From Oligoflexus sp. (lineage in GTDB: Bacteria > Bdellovibrionota_B > Oligoflexia > Oligoflexales > Oligoflexaceae), in NCBI GenBank assembly GCA_041736305.1, contig JBGSTX010000039.1:1-12705 (forward strand): a stretch of 12,705 bases of DNA, written 5' to 3'. The translations under genes and the position numbers were made by a program. Positions 446 through 11,194 of the stretch are shown piece by piece. Each line of letters begins with the position of its first letter. The stretch's first letter is position 1. Below the pieces are notes generated by a model that did no database searches, was not told where the DNA came from, and saw only the letters and a list, made by a program, of their open reading frames with translations.

Positions 446-539
446 GAAAAAAATGAACATTGTGATCATAGTTTAATGGAAATTCTAGAAGCTAAAATTC
501 GATCTCGCCTACGGCGTCAGCAGCCCGTCAAAACTTCGT

Positions 540-690
540 CGTTGCCTTTCACTTAGCCTTTGCCGTGCGCGTGATCTTGATCCTGTTCGATCAACTTTGC
601 CTGTACAGCCCTTGCTTCGTAAAGCTTCACCAAAGCAAAGGGCTCATGGCAAGGGGTTCGGCGAAGATCAGGATCAAGCCTAAGGCAACG
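540..690. repeat. ~150-nt imperfect rod-like inverted repeat, candidate structured ncRNA
   Basis: Nested pairings: CGTTGCCTT 540-548/AAGGCAACG 682-690; CTTGATCCTG 576-585/CAGGATCAAG 669-678; TTCG 586-589/CGAA 662-665; TTTGCC 596-601/GGCAAG 648-653; AGCCCTTGCTT 607-617/AAGCAAAGGGCT 633-644. There is also a side hairpin, TCAC 549-552/GTGA 571-574. Confidence 0.6.
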
Positions 691-832
691 TCTACGCCCA
701 CGTCAAAGTCAATATTCCTTCATATCGTGACAGCAGTGCCAGCATGCTTAAGTCTAATATTTTCAATTAGATAAAGTGCAATAAAAAAATTTCTTTCGGC
801 TCGCCGAGGATGCCGGTGTGCAAAGAATTGAA

Positions 833-936
833 GCATCTTTGTTTGGACCAGCAGCCAGTGGGTTCGCATCTTTCTTAATCTTAGTTGCTGCTTGTTTTTC
901 AGGGTATTCATAAAAAATGCATCTTTCTTTAATCTT
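833..936. promoter_or_regulatory. Direct repeats GCATCTTT, possible regulator binding sites
   Basis: GCATCTTTGTTT 833-844, GCATCTTTCTTAATCTT 866-882 and GCATCTTTCTTTAATCTT 919-936 lie in AT-rich DNA upstream of the lipoprotein operon. Confidence 0.3.
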
Positions 937-1149
937 TAAAATCGCGCGTGTGCTTTCCATTTGTTTAGGCTATAGCCTGAACTCGTTCCAGGACGCGGAT
1001 TACACAACTTCGATATCTCGTCCTAGCAAGTTCAAAAAAGAGCTTGCGAGCCAAAGTCTTAAGGCCAGGCTCTCTCAAAGCCGGCGTTGGTTGACTGAGT
1101 CGGGAACCAGGCTTTCGCACACGTGACCTTTACGAGGAGTTTTTCTTTC

Positions 1150-3432
1150 ATGAATTCAGTCCTGCGTTTCTTCACAGCGTTCACGGTAATGAGTCTTGTG
1201 GCTGCTTCTTGCGGTGATAAAGACAAGAAAGACAACCAACGGAGCGAGCCTGGCTGCGAAAATGGGCTTGCGAGCGGCACTAATCGAGACCAGACTCTCT
1301 TCACCAGCGATTTCGCACCCTACGGTAAAACCTGCCAACAAATTGCGTTCCAAGGCAAAGCCGTTTGCGAAAATGGTCAAATAGGTTTTACATCGTCTGG
1401 TAGACCAAGTTGCGAAGAGACCATCCTCAAAAAAATCACCGTCAAAGGCAGTCGCTCACAGATTGAAATCGGTGAGACTCTGGCTCTCGAGCTGACGGGT
1501 ACCGATCAGCGCGGCGGAACTTTCCCTATCGACGTCCAAACTGTCATTTGGGAGACTAACGATAATTCAATTAGCGTTACAAATTCAGGTTTGATCACGG
1601 GAAGCAAAATTGTTCCCGACGCCGCTGTTTACGCGACAGTTATGGTTGAAGGAAAAGAAGTCTTTGGCACTTTCCGAGTCGGTGTTACTGGTCGCAACTG
1701 CGAGGGTACGGCTCATAATTTGAATAAAGAATTCACCCGCTTCAAAGCAGCCAAGGTTCCCTTCAATGCGACATGCCAAGAAGTCACTACGGAGGCGCTG
1801 TGTAATAACGGTACATTTGAATTTGAAGAAGGTGTCGCCGAGACCTGTAGCGTAGCTCAGCTGAGCAGCTTGGTTGCTGATCCTAGTTCACTCTTCCTAT
1901 CTGAAGGTGAAACGGCCGCCGTTTTCCTTAGCTTGGTGGACGAAATTGGTACTCGCATACCGCTGGACGCCAGCGCCGCTGAGTGGACCTTGCCGACCGA
2001 TCAACTTAGCCATAGCAATGGCCAAATTACAGCTCTGGTAAACCTGACATCTGAGCTTAAGGTACAGGTCAAAGCCAAAGATCAAGCTTTCAGCACTGAA
2101 ATCACGGTTGCTTCCCGCGCCGACCAACCAGAGAGCCTTCGTTTCGAACAAGGCGATCAGGTTCTCAAAGAAGGCGACGAAGTTGAACTCAAGGCACTAT
2201 CTGTCATTCGTGGTCAAACCGAAGCTGTCGACCCCAAGCGTCTGACTTGGGAGTCTAGTGCACCTACCAACGTTTCTGTAAGCGAAGGGCGCGTTAAAGC
2301 CCTCAAGGCCGGCACTCTTGCTTCCATCACAGCTAAGCTTGATCAGACGGTCATCAGTCTCAATGTAACAGTTGAAGAAAAGTTAAGCCTTGATGCTAAA
2401 CTGATCGATGGTCGGGAACTGACAGCTGACAAGCTAAGCCTCTTGCCTGCGGTACTGGCTACCGTTACTGGTCCACTCCAGAGCGCAGAGCCAGAACTGA
2501 AGAACGGCACAGAAGGTTGTGAGTTCTCGATTCACAAAAACCGTAAGGTTTGGGAACTCGATGTAAAAATCGACGAAAATCGCGGGGAGCTCCCTGGCGC
2601 TTGTGAAGTCGAAATCGCTCTTAAATCGGCCGCAGGCCAAACCGCCCAACAAAAAGTTACAGTTCCTGTCGACTACCGTCGCTTCAGCTTCAAGGAAATT
2701 CGTGCTGAAGGTACCGAAGGTCGCCTCGAAATCGGTCGCTTTAACTACAAGCTCTCGAAGAACTTGAGCGTAGTTGAAACCACTGTTCAGAAGTTCAGCA
2801 ATAAGGAAGAAATAAGTCCTGCCGATTGCGAGTTGTCGACCGAAGAGAAAGACGGGACTTACACTGTCTTCGCTACCCGTGCTGCGGGTTCAAGCGGCAT
2901 TTGCAGTGGCTATCTCGCTTTCGAGTTTAAAAAAGAAGGTGTAGAGGAGAATCGCTACCACTACCAACTCTTGGTTCAGTCGCCTGATAAAACCTTCTTG
3001 GAACACTGCCAGTCACCACGCGACGAAGCTGTGAGAGCTACCGTGAACGCTGTGCGTAAGATTCTTGCTCCGTCGGCCAGCTGTGAGAAGCTCGTAGAAG
3101 TCCTCGATGAAAAGAACCTTTATAGCGCCGCCAACAATGACGATACACTCAGCCTTTCCATGGCTAATCAGAAATTGACTGATCTCTCTCCACTGTCGCG
3201 CTTCGTCGGTCTCAAAGAGTTGGACCTCGCTGCCAATCTTGATCTGAGCGATATCTCGGCCCTTGCGGAAGTGAAATTGTTGAAACTTCTCAACCTCAAA
3301 GGGACAGCCGTAAGTGATTTTAGCGCCATCTACAAGCACAAGCGTATGAATGATCTAAGGATCCCTTCCCAGGTTCGCATTGCTTGTAGCGATGCTGTCG
3401 TCAACCCAGAACTTAAAAAAGTTTGTCAGTAA
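1150..3432 (+). CDS. Surface lipoprotein with Cys-rich repeats, Ig-like (Big_2-type) domains and C-terminal internalin-like leucine-rich repeats (760 aa)
   Basis: SD GAGGAG at 1134-1139 precedes ATG 1150. Signal peptide with lipobox: MNSVLRFFTAFTVMSLVAAS-C. Two 4-Cys modules (1255-1413, 1699-1848). Three Big_2-like units (GETLAL..W.TND..G.ITG; GETAAV..W..NGQITAL; GDEVEL..WESSAP.NVSVSEGRVKALKAG). Two further Cys-paired beta modules. Cap TFLEHC..TV..C followed by LRRs (LTDLSPLSRFVGLKELDLAAN, LSDISALAEVKLLKLLNLKGT, VSDFSAI). Confidence 0.88.
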   Translation: MNSVLRFFTAFTVMSLVAASCGDKDKKDNQRSEPGCENGLASGTNRDQTLFTSDFAPYGKTCQQIAFQGKAVCENGQIGFTSSGRPSCEETILKKITVKGSRSQIEIGETLALELTGTDQRGGTFPIDVQTVIWETNDNSISVTNSGLITGSKIVPDAAVYATVMVEGKEVFGTFRVGVTGRNCEGTAHNLNKEFTRFKAAKVPFNATCQEVTTEALCNNGTFEFEEGVAETCSVAQLSSLVADPSSLFLSEGETAAVFLSLVDEIGTRIPLDASAAEWTLPTDQLSHSNGQITALVNLTSELKVQVKAKDQAFSTEITVASRADQPESLRFEQGDQVLKEGDEVELKALSVIRGQTEAVDPKRLTWESSAPTNVSVSEGRVKALKAGTLASITAKLDQTVISLNVTVEEKLSLDAKLIDGRELTADKLSLLPAVLATVTGPLQSAEPELKNGTEGCEFSIHKNRKVWELDVKIDENRGELPGACEVEIALKSAAGQTAQQKVTVPVDYRRFSFKEIRAEGTEGRLEIGRFNYKLSKNLSVVETTVQKFSNKEEISPADCELSTEEKDGTYTVFATRAAGSSGICSGYLAFEFKKEGVEENRYHYQLLVQSPDKTFLEHCQSPRDEAVRATVNAVRKILAPSASCEKLVEVLDEKNLYSAANNDDTLSLSMANQKLTDLSPLSRFVGLKELDLAANLDLSDISALAEVKLLKLLNLKGTAVSDFSAIYKHKRMNDLRIPSQVRIACSDAVVNPELKKVCQ

Positions 3433-3446
3433 GAAAGGTCTATTCT

Positions 3447-5051
3447 ATGCGCGCGATATTATCTCTTAGTGTTTTGGCCACTCTCACCGCCTGCAATCCG
3501 CCCAAGGATAGCAAGGTCAACGAACAGTGGAACGAACGGAACAATCCGGTTCTGATGATGGCCTACGACAATGAATTCGTTACTCAGTTCGACGCCCTGC
3601 CATTGAGCGGACGTCCAGAAAAAATGCCTTGGAGCGATCACTATTGGCCAACTTATCATGGTGGACTGACCTACCGCTGGAATTCGGCAAAGACCAAGCT
3701 GCTCGATCAGAAAGTACAGGCATCCAGCGATCGCGTTTTTGCCGGACAGCTGGATAATAATCCAGAGCTGCAAAAACTCCGCAGCGAAGTTATGGGCTAT
3801 ACGCCTTACACCAAAGAGCAGCTTGCGGCTCTTTCCGAGCGGGAGAGAACGCGCCTTATCGATACTCTCTCACCTGCGGAAAAATACGATATATACCGCG
3901 GCGACTTTAAGTACTCGACGGTCAACGAAGAACGCAAGCGGACTAATATTTTTTCGACTCTTCGCGACAAGCCTGAGTACAAAGCTGATGCTAAAATACC
4001 AACCTGGTTCGGGATCTGTCACTCCTGGGCACCGGCCACGATTCTGTTCAACGAGCCAGGGCCGGTTAACTTGAAAAGCAAAGACGGCTTTCAAGTTCCG
4101 ATGGCTGCCTCCGATGTCAAAGCTTTGCTCTCCCATATGCTCGACAAGGATCCATCCCAGGCCCGCGTCGATCGTTTCCTTGCGGAGCGCTGCAACAACG
4201 ACATCAGCGAAGCGACTATTGACACTCTCATGGAACTCTTCGTACCGCTCCAGATAGGTAATAAAGAGTTGATCTCGAAGCAAGTGAACCTGCTCTTCGA
4301 CAGTGAGAAGCTTGATACCCAAACGATGCTAGTGGCCGCTTCTTTTATGTATGCCTTTTATTCTGATCAGGCTACTGCAGCCGCCGAGTATCAGAAGCTT
4401 TTCGAAAACCTACGCCGCAACACTGGCAGAAACTCTGCTCTTTCTCTGGCTTATCTCGAATCTCAAAAGAATTTCGCTGATGCGGGCACCCCTGTAGGTA
4501 CCAATCTTGAAACCATTCGCAGCAATATCGTCAAAGCAGTTGAGAAGCCAGCCTGCAACGACACCAACGCTGGTGCCTTCCACTTAGTCATCGCTAACGT
4601 GATGGGCATTCAAAAGCAAAGCTTTGGTATCGATGCGACCCGTGACTACGAAGTTTGGAACCAGGCAGCTGCCAGCTACGAGTCATCCGTTGTCAAAGAA
4701 TTCAAGGGTGATGAAATTTCGAGCGATGCAGCACCAGGTACCGTGAGAGAACTCCAGATTCGCACGCGCTTTCGCTACACCACCGAGGAGAATCCAGCTC
4801 GCGACCCCTTTGGCGACGATGTTTCGCTGCAGCGGTACCACGTACAGTTGGGCGACAACTATATCGGCTCTGACGGCCGTCGCTTCAAGGCTCTCGATTA
4901 CAAAATCGAACTCGATCGCGCCGGTAACATTATCGGTGGAACATGGCTCAGTAAGGTACGTCCTGACTTCCTCTGGGGCACTGGAAATGCGTTCTTCAGC
5001 AAAGAGTTCGGTGAGATCGAAGACATCTACTATCAATCCCTCCAACGCTAA
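3447..5051 (+). CDS. Transglutaminase elicitor (GP42/TGase_elicitor family) lipoprotein (534 aa)
   Basis: ATG 3447 follows GAAAGG and lies 14 bp after the upstream stop. Lipobox MRAILSLSVLATLTA-C. Family motifs: PWSDHYWP, LSPAEKYD, PTWFGICHSWAPA (putative catalytic Cys at 4017-4019), DVKALLS, DTNAGAFH, EVWNQ (Pep-13 region), YKIELDRAGNIIGGTW, RPDFLW. Confidence 0.9.
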   Translation: MRAILSLSVLATLTACNPPKDSKVNEQWNERNNPVLMMAYDNEFVTQFDALPLSGRPEKMPWSDHYWPTYHGGLTYRWNSAKTKLLDQKVQASSDRVFAGQLDNNPELQKLRSEVMGYTPYTKEQLAALSERERTRLIDTLSPAEKYDIYRGDFKYSTVNEERKRTNIFSTLRDKPEYKADAKIPTWFGICHSWAPATILFNEPGPVNLKSKDGFQVPMAASDVKALLSHMLDKDPSQARVDRFLAERCNNDISEATIDTLMELFVPLQIGNKELISKQVNLLFDSEKLDTQTMLVAASFMYAFYSDQATAAAEYQKLFENLRRNTGRNSALSLAYLESQKNFADAGTPVGTNLETIRSNIVKAVEKPACNDTNAGAFHLVIANVMGIQKQSFGIDATRDYEVWNQAAASYESSVVKEFKGDEISSDAAPGTVRELQIRTRFRYTTEENPARDPFGDDVSLQRYHVQLGDNYIGSDGRRFKALDYKIELDRAGNIIGGTWLSKVRPDFLWGTGNAFFSKEFGEIEDIYYQSLQR

Positions 5052-5072
5052 TCTGCCTTAACAAAAGCATCT

Positions 5073-5100
5073 TGTGTGGCCTTCGGGCCGCACATCCTTT
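5073..5100 (+). terminator. Probable intrinsic terminator or 3' stabilising hairpin of the Ig/LRR-transglutaminase operon
   Basis: TGTGTGGCC-TTCG-GGCCGCACA forms a 9-bp stem with a C(UUCG)G loop, 21 bp after the stop. The downstream U-tract is weak (TCCTTT). Confidence 0.65.
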
Positions 5101-5485
5101 GGGCTTACAGTCCTCATTCGAAGACAGAATGTTTCCCGCGCTCTTCCCATCTCTTTTCAAATCTCTAATGCTAACGATAACAAGACTTTCATCCTCATCG
5201 CTGAGTTCATTGGACCGCTTTTTTCTAGATGAATGGGTGCCGTCCTCAAAGTTCTCTTCCATTCTGTCTCTCGATCGAGACTGTAAAATTTCTCCCGTCA
5301 CCAGCTTCATCTATTCCATAAAATAAAAACTTCTAAGCAATTTGAGCCTCTTTCGAGCAGCTTTGTCTTAGTCAGTAGCAACGGATTGATGAGTGATTGA
5401 AAAAATCGTTGGGAAGGTGAAGCGTTAAACTAGCTAGAATCTGCGGTAAAAAGCGATAAATATTGTACAATTCAAACTCGCACGT

Positions 5486-5596
5486 TTTCTGTATGCATCC
5501 CGAGACAGTTGACGCAAAGCAGAAAATGCCTAGTATTGTTCTGTATGGGCTTTGTGTTTAGCGAGCATTTCGAGCGTCAGCTACGGGAGACAGAAA
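5486..5596 (+). ncRNA. Candidate structured RNA (~110-nt rod with an alternative pairing)
   Basis: TTTCTGT 5486-5492/ACAGAAA 5590-5596; TCCCG 5498-5502/CGGGA 5584-5588; AGTTGACGC 5507-5515/GCGTCAGCT 5574-5582; AAATGC 5524-5529/GCATTT 5565-5570. G-U pairs favour the + strand. A -10-like TACAAT lies at 5466-5471. Confidence 0.35.
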
Positions 5597-5952
5597 TAAA
5601 TTTGATCGTCCTGCTGCATCCTTCGAGTTTCAGCGTCTGGTCTATGAAATTTATTTATTAAATTAGCGACCTAGGAAAGCAATTCTACTCCCCAAGCCCT
5701 CCTGCAACGGATGGAAAGGTTCTTGCTAAGAGCCATCGCCGTTAGATGAGTCAAAGGATTTGTACTTTTTACGAAAATCTAAATTCCTGCCCACCGGAAA
5801 GGGCGTGGAGCCGAAGTTTTCAAAAAAAAAGTACTAGCCCTAAATTTCGGGTTCAGAGTTTTCACGCGTTTCGTTGAAGCCTATCGAGCTTTAACGACAT
5901 GAGGAAGCTTTGACTCCGACATGGATGCAACTGATCTTATCTGGAGAGATCA

Positions 5953-7008
5953 ATGAGATTAAGCGCTTTTTTTTCCTGCTTCTCGCTAGTAGCACTCCTA
6001 GCTTGCGGAAGCCCTGAGGACGAGATGTCTGAGACCTCATGGGCCCACTCAACTGTCGATCGCTCAAGTGGCACCATCCCCGCCCTCATTGCTTACCGGG
6101 AACTTGGCTTTCGCACTGACTACCAGAAAATTCGAGTCTGTCTCCAGGAAAGTCCTTCTTACAAGGGACGCAATCTCCTCTTAGAATCAAAGTTGGCTTA
6201 CGCGGCCTGGATCGATGCTACCGGACGAGGATCGAGTACTCAATGGGGCCTTTTCGATTTCCAAATCGAAAATCACTGTGACATGTTTGACGAGAACTAT
6301 GCAGCAGCTGTCGTCATTGCCAGTCAGACTAAGCACGATCCGAGCCAGTCTGATGATTTCACCGTCATCAACTGCACCCAGCGCAACTGCTATCCCAATG
6401 CCTACACGACTGGTTGGGGCGGCCCTGCTGCGATGAGCTACACCTACGGTGATAAGACCGGTAAAACCTGGTCCAACATCAGCACCTACCAACCGTCCGT
6501 CGCCCGTCTCTCCCCCTATCTCGCTTGGCAATCGCTCGAAACAGAATTCAGATTGGTCGCTAATAGCACCCAAAGCGGTAACACACAGGCTTCAGCATTG
6601 CTCTCGCAATACCTAGCTCTGAAATCGAAGGCCGAGACAGTTTCTTATGCAGAGCTTGTAGCTTTTAATAAGAAACTGGCTAGCCTGAAAGTAGATTCCA
6701 AAGCAAGATATGGCATAGTCAACAGCGGTAGTTCCTATCAGCTGCAAACACCCGCATTCCATACTCTCTTGCATGAAGTAGGCCACCAATTCGGAATGAT
6801 GCACGCCCACGTCAAATCGGGATATACAGATAATGGCTCTGCTAAGGGTGCCAGGGGTCAGATCAAGGATGGTTTCTGGACCACCAACGATGCGACCATG
6901 GCCTATGATAATTCCTATTTCTACCTCACGGCTGATGACCGATCCGGAATGCAAGACCTCAGCGCTAAACTCTACCCCTATCTAAGTGCCCGTCGCGTGC
7001 GCAAATAG
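5953..7008 (+). CDS. Metzincin zinc metalloprotease lipoprotein (matrixin/M10-M12-like; 351 aa)
   Basis: SD GGAGAG at 5943-5948. Lipobox MRLSAFFSCFSLVALLA-C. HExxHxxGxxH motif = HEVGHQFGMMH (6772-6804). Met-turn DATMAY and C-terminal LTADD helix. Confidence 0.9.
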   Translation: MRLSAFFSCFSLVALLACGSPEDEMSETSWAHSTVDRSSGTIPALIAYRELGFRTDYQKIRVCLQESPSYKGRNLLLESKLAYAAWIDATGRGSSTQWGLFDFQIENHCDMFDENYAAAVVIASQTKHDPSQSDDFTVINCTQRNCYPNAYTTGWGGPAAMSYTYGDKTGKTWSNISTYQPSVARLSPYLAWQSLETEFRLVANSTQSGNTQASALLSQYLALKSKAETVSYAELVAFNKKLASLKVDSKARYGIVNSGSSYQLQTPAFHTLLHEVGHQFGMMHAHVKSGYTDNGSAKGARGQIKDGFWTTNDATMAYDNSYFYLTADDRSGMQDLSAKLYPYLSARRVRK

Positions 7009-7484: not shown

Positions 7485-8300
7485 TCAATCGAGAGTGAAA
7501 AATTCGTTGTCCTGGAGAAGAGGATCAGCGAACGAACGATCCAGCATGTTGCCAAGCAAGGTTGCTTCAGCTGCGCTTGGCTTGACGCTGCCACTGGCTT
7601 CGTAAACATAGAGTTTGCGAGCAAGAGGATAGTTGAAGTTTCTGATCGTGCCTGGAGTTGGTACATAAGCTTTGCCGCCTTCTTTTTTGGCGAGCGAAAG
7701 AGCTTTGTTACCGTCGCGGCCAGCAGAAAGGCCAGCGTAGCCGATTGCGTTCACATTGCTTGACGTGAAGGCAGCAATATCAGAAGTCTCAGATACGACT
7801 TTTACGCAAGAACCAAATTCTTTGATTCCAACCAGAGTCTTGAAAGTGTCGGTGGTACCTGAAGCATCGTTTCTGCGGTAAACAACGATGGCTTGGTTTT
7901 GTCCGCCGACCTGGCTCCAGTTGGTGAGCGTGCAGCTATAGATTTTTTTGACCTGTGCGAGATCAAGAGTTTTGACGCTGTTACCGTCGTTAACGAAGAC
8001 AGCAATTCCATCGAGACCTATTGTGTGCTCGATGACTTTGATGCCTTTGGCTTTAGCCTTGGCCAGAGCTTCATCCTTCATTTCACGAGACATGGGAGCG
8101 ATGCCTTGCTGGCCATTGACCAGAGCGTCTTCGCCTTTGCCAGAACCGCCGCCTTGATAAACCAGTTTTGATTCGAGACCGCTAGCGACGATCACGTCGC
8201 TGACAAAACCAGCTAGCGTGTCAGAACCTTGGATGGATGTTGACTGAGCCATGAGGGGAGAGCTGACGACGAGAGCACCGAGCAAAATCTTGTGAACCAT
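7485..8300 (-). CDS. pstS: PstS-family phosphate ABC transporter substrate-binding protein (271 aa)
   Basis: SD AAGGAG. Sec signal MVHKILLGALVVSSPLMA. Motifs IQGSDT, GGGSGKG, MSR, GLDGIAVFVN, TNWSQVGG, RNDASGT, AIGY, YPLARKLYVY. Confidence 0.92.
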   Translation of the reverse strand: MVHKILLGALVVSSPLMAQSTSIQGSDTLAGFVSDVIVASGLESKLVYQGGGSGKGEDALVNGQQGIAPMSREMKDEALAKAKAKGIKVIEHTIGLDGIAVFVNDGNSVKTLDLAQVKKIYSCTLTNWSQVGGQNQAIVVYRRNDASGTTDTFKTLVGIKEFGSCVKVVSETSDIAAFTSSNVNAIGYAGLSAGRDGNKALSLAKKEGGKAYVPTPGTIRNFNYPLARKLYVYEASGSVKPSAAEATLLGNMLDRSFADPLLQDNEFFTLD

Positions 8301-8391: not shown

Positions 8392-11112
8392 TCAAGGCGT
8401 AAACTGTTTTTCGCATTCTGTCTGTGGATAGGTCTGCTGACCTTTCGCAACTTTGCTGCGCACATAGTCATAAATGGTCCAGCCCGCGTTAGTGGCAGCT
8501 TTTTGTAGCCACTTCTCGAGTGCCTTAGGATTAACTGGTTCTCCGGTCTCCTCGTCATACTGCAGGCGAGGATCGCTAGGCTTGAGGTTTTGATAGCTAC
8601 AGACCTCGTTGAAAATTTCATAGTCGCGGAAATATGGTTTTGCAGCTTTGGCGTTGCTAGGGATCTGTCGTGCGCAGCGATCCATGATGGTCTTGAGCAT
8701 CTGCGCTTTGTTGCTGCCGAGCAGCTCGGCGACCTGCGGCGGCGGATTCATTTTGGTGCCTTCGAGGGCCATCCAGATGAAATAGTTGCCGCTCAGGTCT
8801 TCTGTTTCGCCTCGTGGGCTGATGCGTTCAAACTCAGCTAAGTTTGCACCCTCGTTGCCGAAGAGGCCGGCTTTGAAGTTGGCGACGCGTATCTGCCCAC
8901 CTGACCACTTTTTGAGATTCTGCGCCATAGGTCCATCGGCTTCGCCGAGACGACCGTGACATTTCACACAGGTGATGTTGTAGAAGTAGGCTCCTGGCTG
9001 CGTCCAGTAGAGCTGGCCAGCAGGCTTAGAGAAGCTGCCATCTGGCTTTTTCATCCAGTCTTTGATCTCGCTGCTCGCTAGTTCTCTTTCAGGAAACTTG
9101 CATTCAGGCTTCTCCTGCCACCAGTCAACCGCATAGGCCTTTTCGGAAATCTTGTGCAGCTGAGAATCGAAGGTCAAGTCGTAGTACCAAGGCGCCATGC
9201 CATTTGTCGGATCGTTCCAATCTTCGCGACGCGGCTTGTAGGGACCGCTCGGTTCGGTGGGATCATCTTCTACGATCGGGGCATCGGCTAGCGAGTAATC
9301 ATCGTCCTGAGTACACTTCGTAGCCGAAGCAAAAGAATTTATTTGGCTCTGATCCTGCATCGGATCAAAAGTTTTGATCCAGCGAGAAAAGAGGTCGACC
9401 GCGCGGCAATCAGGGCCACCCGTGCTGTGCAAGGGCATGCGAGCTTCTAGCTTGAGCTCTTCATCAGTTGCGGCGAGCCGGTGGAAGAGGTAGCTCTGAT
9501 CAAGTTGACCTTCATGATGCACGAGTTTCCTGTTTTCAAACTGAGTGGAAGCCATGAACGTATCAAAATTGATGATGCGGCCTGCGCTCATATCGAGTTT
9601 GACATCGGAGTCGGTCTTGGCAAAGCCGTTAGGATTGTGGCAGGACGCACAGTTGCCGAGGGCATAGCCTTGCGCCCGCAGCGTATGCTCGTTGAGAGGA
9701 CGAGCTGAAGGGAAATTCTCGAGCTTTGGTAGTTTCGCGGCATCTTCGACCGAGATCAGGCCGTGTTTGACAAAATTTTCAATTTGTTTCAGCTCGTCTT
9801 TACCCACGGCAATGTCGCGAGCCGCTTCCCCGAGATTGCGTCGATTGACTTGCAAAGGAGTAAAGCCAAGAACGAAACTCTCGTCGACTCCACCCTGGTG
9901 GCACTGCTCACAGCGGTGGCGTGCAGGGACCAGATAGCTTCGCTTACTGCCAGTCTCTTGGTTAAAATCGAGCGAGAGAACTAGGTCCTTCCAAGGCGTA
10001 CCATCTCGATAGGGAGTGGTCAGGAGTTCGGCATCCGTAGCGTTATCGCGCCAAACGTAGGTTCCATAAAGAGGTTTCTTAGGAGGATAACGAACCACGA
10101 TCAGACGGGTCTCCACCGGACGATAGCGCACGATGCCATCGCTTTCCTTGACGCCGCGGTAGAAAGTTTTATAGAAGCGAGTGTTTTCTGGGACTACGAA
10201 ATTGGATTCTCCTTCATTGCTGCCAGGCTTCAGCGTAAGGGCTTCGGGCTTACCACTGCCGTCTTTTTTTGCCGGCAAGTGAATGTGCCGCAATTTTCGT
10301 GCATGGTCGTTCCACAGAGGATACTCGACGTTATAGGAGTAAGTACCTTTGGCAGCTAGAGTAGGACTATCCATGCTTACGAGGTCGGTGCCGCTGAGCA
10401 GTGCAGGCAGCGCGTCGCTCGCTTCGAATTTTTCATCCGCTGCAGCGTCGATGCCCCCCTCTTCGGTTTCCGGTAGGCAGTTGCCTAGATCGGTCATCTG
10501 TTGCTCGGCTAGCTCGCCCCACATGCTCGGGTAAGCCTGGCTCTGGGCGGATCCTTCGGCATTTTCTGCCTTGCCTGAACTTATCCAAGCATCGAGCCGA
10601 CGGCCGAGGTCTTCGTAAGCTGCGGGGTTCAGCGAGCGAATACTCTCAGGTGGCATGCGGCCGCTGACGATGGCGTCCCGCATTTTCTCAGCTGACGAAG
10701 CGAAGCCGGGGCTCAGCTTCGGGCTGCCGTCAATCACGAGCTCGCGATCGGCGAAGCTCGAACTATAGGAAAAGCCCCCAAGGTTCGCAGCCGGTGCTTG
10801 ATGACAGCCTGCGCAGGAGCTGTCGATATCTCGCTTAATATCAGCAAAGCTCGGGCCCTGGGCGGCTGCGCCGCTTGGTTTAGCCAAGGTGAAAGTTTGG
10901 TAGCTCTCAGGAAGAGCGCAGGGACGGGTGTTCGAAAGATTTGGGCCGGCACCGCCTTCTGTGAGCTGTTCCGGCTCAGGGACTGCGGGCTCATTTCCGG
11001 ATTTCTTCTCTTTGGATTTGAGGCAGGCACTGAGCGATACCGTGACGAAAAGCATGAGCAGAATAAGCGGCCGAGACCAGCTTCTCCGACGGATGCTTGG
11101 ACAAACAAACAT
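8392..11112 (-). CDS. Tetraheme c-type cytochrome lipoprotein with SO2930-like diheme core (906 aa)
   Basis: SD GGAGG lies 6 nt before ATG 11112, which is a better start than TTG 11181. Lipobox ...LLMLFVTVSLSA-C. CxxCH at 10801-10815 (CAGCH), 9898-9912 (CEQCH), 9637-9651 (CASCH) and 8956-8970 (CVKCH). RMPP, RMPL and KMNPP provide candidate distal Met ligands. YPLWNDHARKLRHI, FYKTF, VETRLIV, YVW and GY..GNCASCHNP match the SO2930/HNE_0200 diheme family pattern. Confidence 0.88.
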   Translation of the reverse strand: MFVCPSIRRRSWSRPLILLMLFVTVSLSACLKSKEKKSGNEPAVPEPEQLTEGGAGPNLSNTRPCALPESYQTFTLAKPSGAAAQGPSFADIKRDIDSSCAGCHQAPAANLGGFSYSSSFADRELVIDGSPKLSPGFASSAEKMRDAIVSGRMPPESIRSLNPAAYEDLGRRLDAWISSGKAENAEGSAQSQAYPSMWGELAEQQMTDLGNCLPETEEGGIDAAADEKFEASDALPALLSGTDLVSMDSPTLAAKGTYSYNVEYPLWNDHARKLRHIHLPAKKDGSGKPEALTLKPGSNEGESNFVVPENTRFYKTFYRGVKESDGIVRYRPVETRLIVVRYPPKKPLYGTYVWRDNATDAELLTTPYRDGTPWKDLVLSLDFNQETGSKRSYLVPARHRCEQCHQGGVDESFVLGFTPLQVNRRNLGEAARDIAVGKDELKQIENFVKHGLISVEDAAKLPKLENFPSARPLNEHTLRAQGYALGNCASCHNPNGFAKTDSDVKLDMSAGRIINFDTFMASTQFENRKLVHHEGQLDQSYLFHRLAATDEELKLEARMPLHSTGGPDCRAVDLFSRWIKTFDPMQDQSQINSFASATKCTQDDDYSLADAPIVEDDPTEPSGPYKPRREDWNDPTNGMAPWYYDLTFDSQLHKISEKAYAVDWWQEKPECKFPERELASSEIKDWMKKPDGSFSKPAGQLYWTQPGAYFYNITCVKCHGRLGEADGPMAQNLKKWSGGQIRVANFKAGLFGNEGANLAEFERISPRGETEDLSGNYFIWMALEGTKMNPPPQVAELLGSNKAQMLKTIMDRCARQIPSNAKAAKPYFRDYEIFNEVCSYQNLKPSDPRLQYDEETGEPVNPKALEKWLQKAATNAGWTIYDYVRSKVAKGQQTYPQTECEKQFTP

Positions 11113-11194
11113 AGCCTTCCTCCTAGGGACAGGGCGTTTTAGATTCGGAGACGTTATAGGCGTGGGGGCTGCAAGGCTCAAATGAATTGACCGT

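Follow-up and report, generated by a model that had tools for sequence, protein, structure and literature searches.

Two adjacent genes, open reading frame 1 (ORF1) and ORF2, encode what we interpret, with moderate confidence, as a cell-envelope enzyme and the scaffold dedicated to it; the C-terminal part of ORF1 would act as a clamp that docks ORF2. They lie in contig JBGSTX010000039.1, which was analysed over its whole length of 12,705 nucleotides (nt; hereafter the window) and belongs to a genome of 392 contigs (92.7% complete) assigned to the genus Oligoflexus, phylum Bdellovibrionota, from the public names on its relatives. ORF2 encodes a lipoprotein enzyme of the GP42 type (Pfam family TGase_elicitor, PF16683), and ORF1 encodes a probable lipoprotein built of cysteine-rich modules, immunoglobulin (Ig)-like domains and leucine-rich repeats (LRRs). 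The interpretation draws on the strict co-occurrence of the two genes across the genus, on a reproducibly predicted complex of their products and on a complementary charge swap between clades at the predicted contacts.

A gene pair specific to one enzyme subfamily in one genus

The original prediction, made from the letters of the DNA, had described two lipobox genes 14 nt apart with a UUCG hairpin behind them, and the coordinates of this layout hold (Table 1). The hairpin, with the stems UGUGUGGCC and GGCCGCACA around its UUCG loop, is stable (minimum free energy -23.4 kcal/mol in an 81-nt context, z -2.2); it has no T-run, and for this reason a simple terminator scan gave no call there. Promoter and terminator scans over positions 446-6000 returned sites no more numerous than in shuffled sequences, and no promoter- or terminator-like site on the + strand in or beside the ORF1-ORF2 spacer. 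Rfam gave zero matches across the window.

Relatives of the two genes were sought in 61 genomes, namely that of the window, 13 others from its genus, 8 from its family and 39 from its order. Full-length relatives of ORF1 (30-42% identity) and long-form relatives of ORF2 (48-61% identity) were found within the genus only. There, the pair was adjacent, with ORF1 first and both genes on the same strand, at nine loci in 8 of the 14 Oligoflexus genomes, one locus being cut by a contig end. Neither gene was present in the other six (72-94% complete), and none of the 14 genomes carried one gene alone. A tenth adjacent pair was found on a metagenome contig. With starts placed before the signal peptides, the gaps between the genes were 14, 18, 25, -4, 5, 5, 5, 5 and 17 nt (-16 to 25 nt if the longest ORFs are taken), the two reading frames thus overlapping by 4 nt at one locus. 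The conserved co-directional pair that had been anticipated was therefore observed. None of the window's five other genes had relatives at the other pair loci, so the pair is all that is common to every locus, and wider synteny was seen at three closely related loci only. ORF1 has no paralogue in its own genome, and a search of 5.8 billion proteins added just two relatives among the candidates that were scored; these two and the two best ORF2 relatives presumably lie on the same contigs, of 70,299 and 54,297 nt.

The original prediction had suggested surveying the neighbourhoods of bacterial TGase_elicitor genes for adjacent Ig/LRR lipoproteins. We examined 54 TGase_elicitor loci, each with flanks of up to 5 kb, using an ORF1-family profile. 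An ORF1 relative was detected at 7 of 7 long-form loci and within about 5 kb of none of the 47 other loci, indicating that ORF1 accompanies the insert-bearing ORF2 subfamily. The roughly nine further TGase_elicitor loci of the window's genome, which are short-form paralogues, share no contig with any LRR gene. These results indicate a genuine pairing that is restricted to a single subfamily within one genus, and that is no general trait of bacterial GP42-like genes.

Folds and lipoprotein signals of the two proteins

The ORF2 protein matched TGase_elicitor at 107.6 bits (cut-off 25, E 7.6e-31), the match being broken into four stretches by a helical insert, and its sole sequence relative in the PDB was GP42 of Phytophthora sojae (3tw5, E 3.9e-15). 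Its AlphaFold2 model (predicted local distance difference test, pLDDT, 93.6; 78-row alignment) led to the same entry: Foldseek gave 3tw5 (E 1e-13) as the sole match at E <= 0.001, and VIA-align superposed 301 of 344 residues with a Z of 30.1, a root-mean-square deviation of 2.6 Å and 27% identity, the next row reaching Z 7.8 and papain-like proteases Z 5-6. The catalytic cysteine that had been read from a GICH motif was confirmed in this alignment, where WFGICHSW of ORF2 faces WFGISHAW of the 3tw5 chain, and C191-H192 stands at the start of helix 191-200 in the model. Among 78 aligned family members, CH was present in 77 and D372 in 73, and N374, N405, C249 and C370 were present in all; D372 and N405 align with an Asp and an Asn of GP42 and are candidates for the polar partner of the His, for which an Asp on a non-core helix or an Asn on strand beta-2 would be expected. 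The 'CH' arrangement is described as an unusual catalytic signature of the GP42 family in a passage of PMC10318531. With this motif kept and a Z of 30.1 to GP42, ORF2 looks intact as an enzyme, as far as sequence and model can tell, and would be a lipid-anchored cysteine enzyme with a papain-like core in which Cys191-His192, Asp372 and Asn405 are the putative catalytic residues. Its chemistry is most likely acyl transfer on protein side chains, i.e. transglutaminase-type cross-linking or a related deamidation or hydrolysis; what reaction it catalyses, on which substrate, and at which membrane and face are points that we only infer.

The subfamily to which ORF2 belongs is marked by the spacing between the invariant Cys249 and Cys370, which is 113-126 residues in 29 long forms, ORF2 among them, versus 12-66 residues in 49 short forms. 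The extra sequence of about 95 amino acids (aa) is modelled as six helices and would form an additional domain beside the active-site face. It is fast-evolving, with a mean pairwise identity of 30% versus 61-63% in the core, and a fold search with it returned generic helical bundles only, all at Z < 8.

The ORF1 model (mean pLDDT 86, predicted template modelling score 0.51, ten sequences) bore out the cysteine-rich and Ig-like stalk with a distal LRR that had been proposed. Five small domains would form a stalk tying the complex to a membrane, and the C-terminal part, consisting of two larger beta-sandwiches, a helical cap and four LRRs with short strands at 668-670, 690-692, 713-715 and 735-737, would form the clamp on the enzyme. 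Foldseek searches with the model returned Ig-domain arrays, among them LigA, cadherins and titin, and the top bacterial matches were the S-layer proteins Sap, EA1, SbsB and SbsC. Besides the lipobox cysteine, twelve cysteines are invariant in the alignment of ten relatives, including 36, 88, 209, 218 and 233; they fit an oxidising compartment outside the cytoplasm and a protein that is probably rich in disulfides.

Sequence profiles gave a mixed answer on the domain families originally named for the pair. TGase_elicitor was found as described above, and LRR_4 was matched in 10 of 10 ORF1 relatives, the window protein itself scoring 23.2 bits, under the cut-off of 27, and the genomic DNA 30.8 bits with in-frame neighbours. 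Big_2 (PF02368) matched neither the window ORF1 at E <= 10 nor its DNA at E <= 0.01; five of the ten relatives gave a match (best E 1.1e-6), and an Atlas search with ORF1 residues 30-240 reached Big_2 clusters at 0.80, which we take as a lead only. In PDB sequence searches the LRRs resembled those of Roco proteins and internalins, down to E 2e-12, and the NCBIfam models internalin_A and internalin_H scored 17-21 bits on ORF1 against cut-offs of 1050-1600. The cysteine-rich modules matched no Pfam family. Such a module and the Ig-like domain after it make up a unit that is present as two tandem copies, residues 35-180 and 184-322 (window 1252-2115). As for the two orthologues L036:8054-10243 and L033:8093-10456, one lacks the first cysteine-rich module (a gap of about 40 residues), suggesting that the stalk tolerates module loss, and the other has a 16-residue insertion right before the first LRR.

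The lipobox of ORF2, L-T-A-C16, is canonical: it meets the pattern [LVI][ASTVI][GAS]C after a hydrophobic stretch, and the eight orthologues have LAAC, IMAC, LFAC or LAGC. That of ORF1, A-A-S-C21, has Ala at -3 and is also compatible with a signal peptidase I site. Its relatives show LQAC, VEGC, TEGC, LINC, LISC, MITC and IFSC, and all 10 of them keep the cysteine directly behind the hydrophobic stretch. At every locus the lipobox cysteine is kept in both proteins. Asp at +2 occurs in one ORF1 relative only; the +2 rule for lipoprotein sorting in E. coli may not apply in Bdellovibrionota.

Predicted docking and its alternatives

Complex prediction with ORF2 residues 25-534 (78-row alignment) and ORF1 residues 411-760 (10-row alignment) gave scores of 0.63, 0.66 and 0.69 (median 0.66), and none of three controls scored above 0.00. 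The runs agreed in at least 79% of contacts, and the pLDDT of the partner was at least 87. The modelling of the pair suggested in the original prediction thus returned a predicted contact between the two proteins. As a calibration, 58 of 80 solved complexes reached the mark, as did 2 of 110 mismatched pairs; these figures are a rough guide only, since our own alignments were used here. This enzyme family has one entry in the PDB, and we know of no solved complex between a GP42-family enzyme and an LRR protein, so it seems unlikely that the score reflects a complex already familiar to the predictor. A false pass of another kind, with ORF1 and ORF2 being merely co-transcribed envelope proteins that make no contact, is in our view very improbable: the mismatched pairs that reached the mark, the position of our alignments outside the calibration and an interface no more conserved than the rest would all agree with it, but the controls scored zero, the genes occur as both or neither in 14 of 14 genus genomes with the pair in differing gene contexts, and charges swap at the exact predicted contacts, as described below.

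On ORF2, the 28 predicted interface residues fall at 40, 43, 202 and 388-391, in the hairpin loop (421-433), within 490-494 and in the C-terminal segment and helix (514-532). On ORF1, it covers 419-471, the cap at 638-642 and the LRR strands 668-673, 690-695, 713-718 and 735-737, and the lowest expected errors were obtained for the ORF2-ORF1 pairs 525-694, 525-717, 526-717 and 529-717. In the predicted complex, the LRR concave face and the neighbouring sandwich grip the C-terminal helix of ORF2, and the first sandwich would take its beta-hairpin loop. C191, H192, D372 and N405 are not among the predicted interface residues. Residues 202 and 388-391 are the C-terminal ends of helices whose N-termini carry the catalytic residues in the AlphaFold2 model; with the contacts at these far ends, the clamp would grip the back of the enzyme, and the active site would stay free, judging from the interface list and the secondary structure. 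ORF1 would then position or present the enzyme, and the LRR would not choose a foreign target. A parallel design exists in the TGase_elicitor family, where C-terminal ankyrin repeats are fused to the enzyme domain.

The geometry of this interface bears on two other roles for ORF1. It could regulate the enzyme, as an inhibitor or as an aid to maturation or export, and so keep a potentially harmful cross-linker inactive or in place until needed. LRR proteins that inhibit or regulate enzymes are known, as in ribonuclease inhibitor, the plant polygalacturonase-inhibiting proteins and SDS22-PP1, and the tight gene coupling, with its overlap of reading frames at one locus, would suit such a role. 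We nevertheless consider it quite improbable, as C191, H192, D372 and N405 lie outside the interface list, a stalk of 760 aa would be oversized for an inhibitor alone, and the short-form paralogous loci of the same genome manage without an ORF1 paralogue or an LRR gene on the contig. Alternatively, ORF1 could be the substrate, a Lys/Gln-containing stalk that the transglutaminase polymerises into a covalent surface coat, the docking being the encounter of enzyme and substrate. This would agree with the S-layer proteins at the head of the bacterial Foldseek matches, with the Lys-rich tether that follows Cys21 in all ORF1 relatives, and with the strict pairing and predicted contact, which fit a dedicated substrate as well. 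The predicted interface, however, lies away from the catalytic residues, going by secondary structure, Lys-rich tethers are common in lipoproteins, and no sign of repeats or self-association came up in this analysis; we regard this alternative as fairly unlikely.

We examined covariation of the interface columns in 11 matched pairs. In clade A, ORF2 has E525-D526 in 6 of 6 pairs, and ORF1 has K717/N715 in the five that cover that strand, with small residues at 694/695 in most pairs. In clade B (four pairs), the charges are reversed, with K525 and K/R526 in ORF2 and D/E717, D715 and D695 in ORF1. One intermediate pair combines A525-D526 of ORF2 with K715-A717 of ORF1. Full charge reversal was found in 4 of 510 ORF2 columns, and three of these (202, 525 and 526) belong to the interface (Fisher p 6e-4). 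The predicted docking is thus supported by the model and by covariation together.

These data also bear on the role that the original prediction had given to the LRR, namely a free adhesin tip that selects an outside protein of prey, host or biofilm, which the transglutaminase would then cross-link or modify. LRRs and Ig arrays are typical of adhesins, as the matches to LigA, cadherins, S-layer proteins and internalins illustrate, the pair looks like an operon, and the LRR strands differ between clades, as target-binding surfaces often do. The concave face, however, is the predicted seat of the enzyme, its variation is mirrored by opposite-charge changes in ORF2, and four LRRs offer little surface for a second ligand. 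Signs of predation or of a host were not seen here, and the genus, Oligoflexus, is to our knowledge not known as predatory, so that 'prey or host' has no basis in these data. We consider a free adhesin tip unlikely. A predation function was dropped for want of evidence, and a toxin-immunity pair was dropped given that ORF1 is much too big for one and that both proteins carry export signals.

Several points weigh against a clamp on the enzyme. The docking is a model and not a measurement, and the covariation amounts to one clade split and one intermediate, i.e. one or two evolutionary events, in a Fisher test that treats columns as independent. Conservation of the interface is no higher than that of the rest (0.67 vs 0.67 in ORF2, 0.49 vs 0.57 in ORF1), and in ORF1 411-760 one of three charge-reversal columns falls in the interface (p 0.23). 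The helical insert lies outside the predicted interface with ORF1 411-760, which leaves its link to ORF1 co-occurrence unexplained. The lipobox of ORF1 is non-canonical, and the literature has nothing on record about the activity or function of bacterial GP42/TGase_elicitor members. Moreover, both proteins have N-terminal anchors while the enzyme is predicted at the far end of ORF1; this would require a stalk that arches over or lies flat, anchoring in two separate membranes, or cell-cell contact. A wider scenario, which we offer as a speculation of low probability, is that of an enzyme on a ruler: a stalk in one leaflet would clamp an enzyme that is itself tethered in the other membrane, on a neighbouring filament cell or under an arch, and so fix the place and distance of cross-linking, and GP42-type enzymes would be envelope cross-linkers throughout the phylum, each subfamily steered by its own partner (an Ig/LRR stalk, a 140-aa lipoprotein or ankyrin repeats).

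Genomic and family context, and comparison with known systems

Table 1 Features of the ORF1-ORF2 pair and further loci of the TGase_elicitor family. Coordinates refer to the window unless residues or other loci are given.
Feature	Coordinates	Strand	Description
ORF1	1150..3432	+	ATG 1150, stop 3430-3432, 760 aa; probable lipoprotein, predicted stalk plus clamp; AlphaFold2 pLDDT 86
ORF1 stalk (residues 35-408)	1252..2373	+	Two Cys-rich modules and three Ig-like domains (AlphaFold2, Foldseek)
Cys-rich beta module	ORF1 residues 35-90		AlphaFold2 model
Ig-like sandwich	ORF1 residues 93-180		AlphaFold2 model
Second Cys-rich module	ORF1 residues 184-236		AlphaFold2 model
Ig-like sandwich	ORF1 residues 238-322		AlphaFold2 model
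Ig-like sandwich	ORF1 residues 329-408		AlphaFold2 model
ORF1 clamp	2386..3429	+	Two beta-sandwiches, helical cap, four LRRs; predicted ORF2 docking site
Larger beta-sandwich	ORF1 residues 413-516		AlphaFold2 model
Larger beta-sandwich	ORF1 residues 524-610		AlphaFold2 model
Helical cap	ORF1 residues 616-661		AlphaFold2 model
Four LRRs	ORF1 residues 665-760		AlphaFold2 model
Spacer	3433..3446	+	14 nt; purine-rich GAAAGG at its start, 8 nt before the ORF2 ATG
ORF2	3447..5051	+	ATG 3447, stop 5049-5051, 534 aa; GP42-type (TGase_elicitor) papain-fold cysteine enzyme, long form, lipoprotein
Cys191-His192 codons ('CH' catalytic motif)	4017..4022	+	Aligned to GISH in the 3tw5 chain
Helical insert (residues 251-366, between invariant Cys249 and Cys370)	4197..4544	+	Mark of the long-form subfamily; six helices
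ORF2 C-terminal segment and helix (residues 514-532)	4986..5042	+	Predicted to sit on the LRR concave face
Hairpin	5073..5094	+	9 bp, UUCG loop, 22 nt past the ORF2 stop; possible transcript end or stabiliser
Further TGase_elicitor contigs in the window's genome (G000)	C132, C367 (32.9-36.8 kb, three in tandem), C322, C9, C286, C228, C102		
Loci of the ~140-aa lipoprotein	L065:6265-6681, L067:6265-6681, L074:2766-3188, L081:6247-6672, L082:1163-1588, L084:6188-6613		

Elsewhere in the window, the stretch of about 700 nt 5' of ORF1 (446-1149) contains no convincing ORF, Rfam match or promoter-like site in our scans, and its GC content is 0.46-0.50 versus 0.49-0.53 in the genes. Downstream of the pair, a 351-aa ORF (5953-7008, + strand) carries a lipobox-like LLAC at residues 15-18 and the zinc motif HEVGHQFGMMH, with weak reprolysin-type (M12B) Pfam matches under the cut-offs; it is not kept beside the pair in other genomes. 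On the - strand, a gene for a PstS-like PBP_like_2 protein (7485-8300) adjoins that of a 929-aa protein (8392-11181), which has several CxxCH motifs, matched cytochrome c models and gave a partial match to the SO2930-family diheme cytochrome model (114.5 bits, under the cut-off of 313).

The enzyme family itself is widespread in the phylum. PF16683 was matched in 122 of 131 sampled Bdellovibrionota genomes, usually several times each, and in none of 14 control genomes; the window's genome has about ten TGase_elicitor loci. By a loose lipobox pattern, 57 of 78 family members are lipoprotein-like. C-terminal ankyrin fusions were found in L089:4875-7085 and P0080 (Ank_2 E 5e-10 and 1.3e-14), and precomputed Pfam domains point to two more (P0086 and P0091). 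In 6 of 47 loci, a lipoprotein of about 140 aa is encoded 77-82 nt downstream of a short-form TGase_elicitor gene; the six share 44-93% identity, come from Bacteriovoracaceae- or Halobacteriovoraceae-type metagenome-assembled genomes and have no relative in the window's genome. This protein may be a second kind of partner for TGase_elicitor enzymes.

GP42-type transglutaminases are known as cell-wall enzymes of oomycetes and as elicitors of plant immunity; genes for their bacterial relatives occur in nearly every sampled Bdellovibrionota genome, often in ten or more copies. The original prediction had regarded the pairing as undescribed in bacteria, and literature searches indeed found no such system; judged by titles, abstract starts and term counts, no paper was found on bacterial GP42/TGase_elicitor enzymes, on the family expansion or on an LRR or lipoprotein pairing. 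The parts are of known kinds; the novelty lies in the putative operon, in the long-form subfamily and in the LRR-to-enzyme docking predicted here. For one bacterial subfamily, a partner that is strictly conserved and whose predicted interface can be tested by mutation gives a first concrete handle, and, if the docking is true, the LRR domain would serve as an in-operon docking module for an enzyme and not as an adhesin tip. The near-complete genome of Oligoflexus tunisiensis Shr3 carries the pair, so experimental study looks feasible if this strain can be grown and manipulated.

Compared with Phytophthora sojae GP42 (3TW5), which is reportedly Ca2+-dependent in its activity and is said to have relatives in marine Vibrio, ORF2 has the same fold, the 'CH' motif, the conserved D..N..H helix and the EVWNQ strand, but it is bacterial and lipid-anchored, contains the helical insert of about 95 aa between two invariant cysteines and has a dedicated partner gene. 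Within its own family, the ankyrin-fused TGase_elicitor proteins of Bacteriovoracaceae (L089, P0080) likewise join the enzyme to a solenoid-repeat binding module; in contrast to the ORF1-ORF2 pair, these are one chain with ankyrin repeats instead of LRRs, a short-form enzyme and no Ig stalk. ORF1 resembles the Leptospira Lig proteins, lipoprotein adhesins with Big_2 arrays, in that several Ig-like domains in series follow a lipobox (Foldseek E 2e-9 to LigA fragment 8gyr). It differs in its roughly five sandwiches with two cysteine-rich modules interleaved and in its ending of helical cap and LRR, and there is no sequence-level relationship between them beyond domain type. With the Listeria internalins, ORF1 shares the combination of 22-residue LRRs and Ig-like domains (PDB matches to InlA, InlB and InlH, to E 3.4e-9); it differs in that the Ig chain comes before the LRR, the reverse of the internalin order, in having four repeats only, and in that its predicted ligand is the operon partner and not a host receptor. 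In working principle, a parallel may be LpoA/LpoB-PBP1A/1B, where the place of action of an envelope enzyme is set by a dedicated, elongated lipoprotein that binds it. This likeness is one of principle only and involves no homology; ORF2, as judged from its sequence, would be a papain-fold acyl-transferase, and in the Oligoflexus pair both partners are probable lipoproteins.

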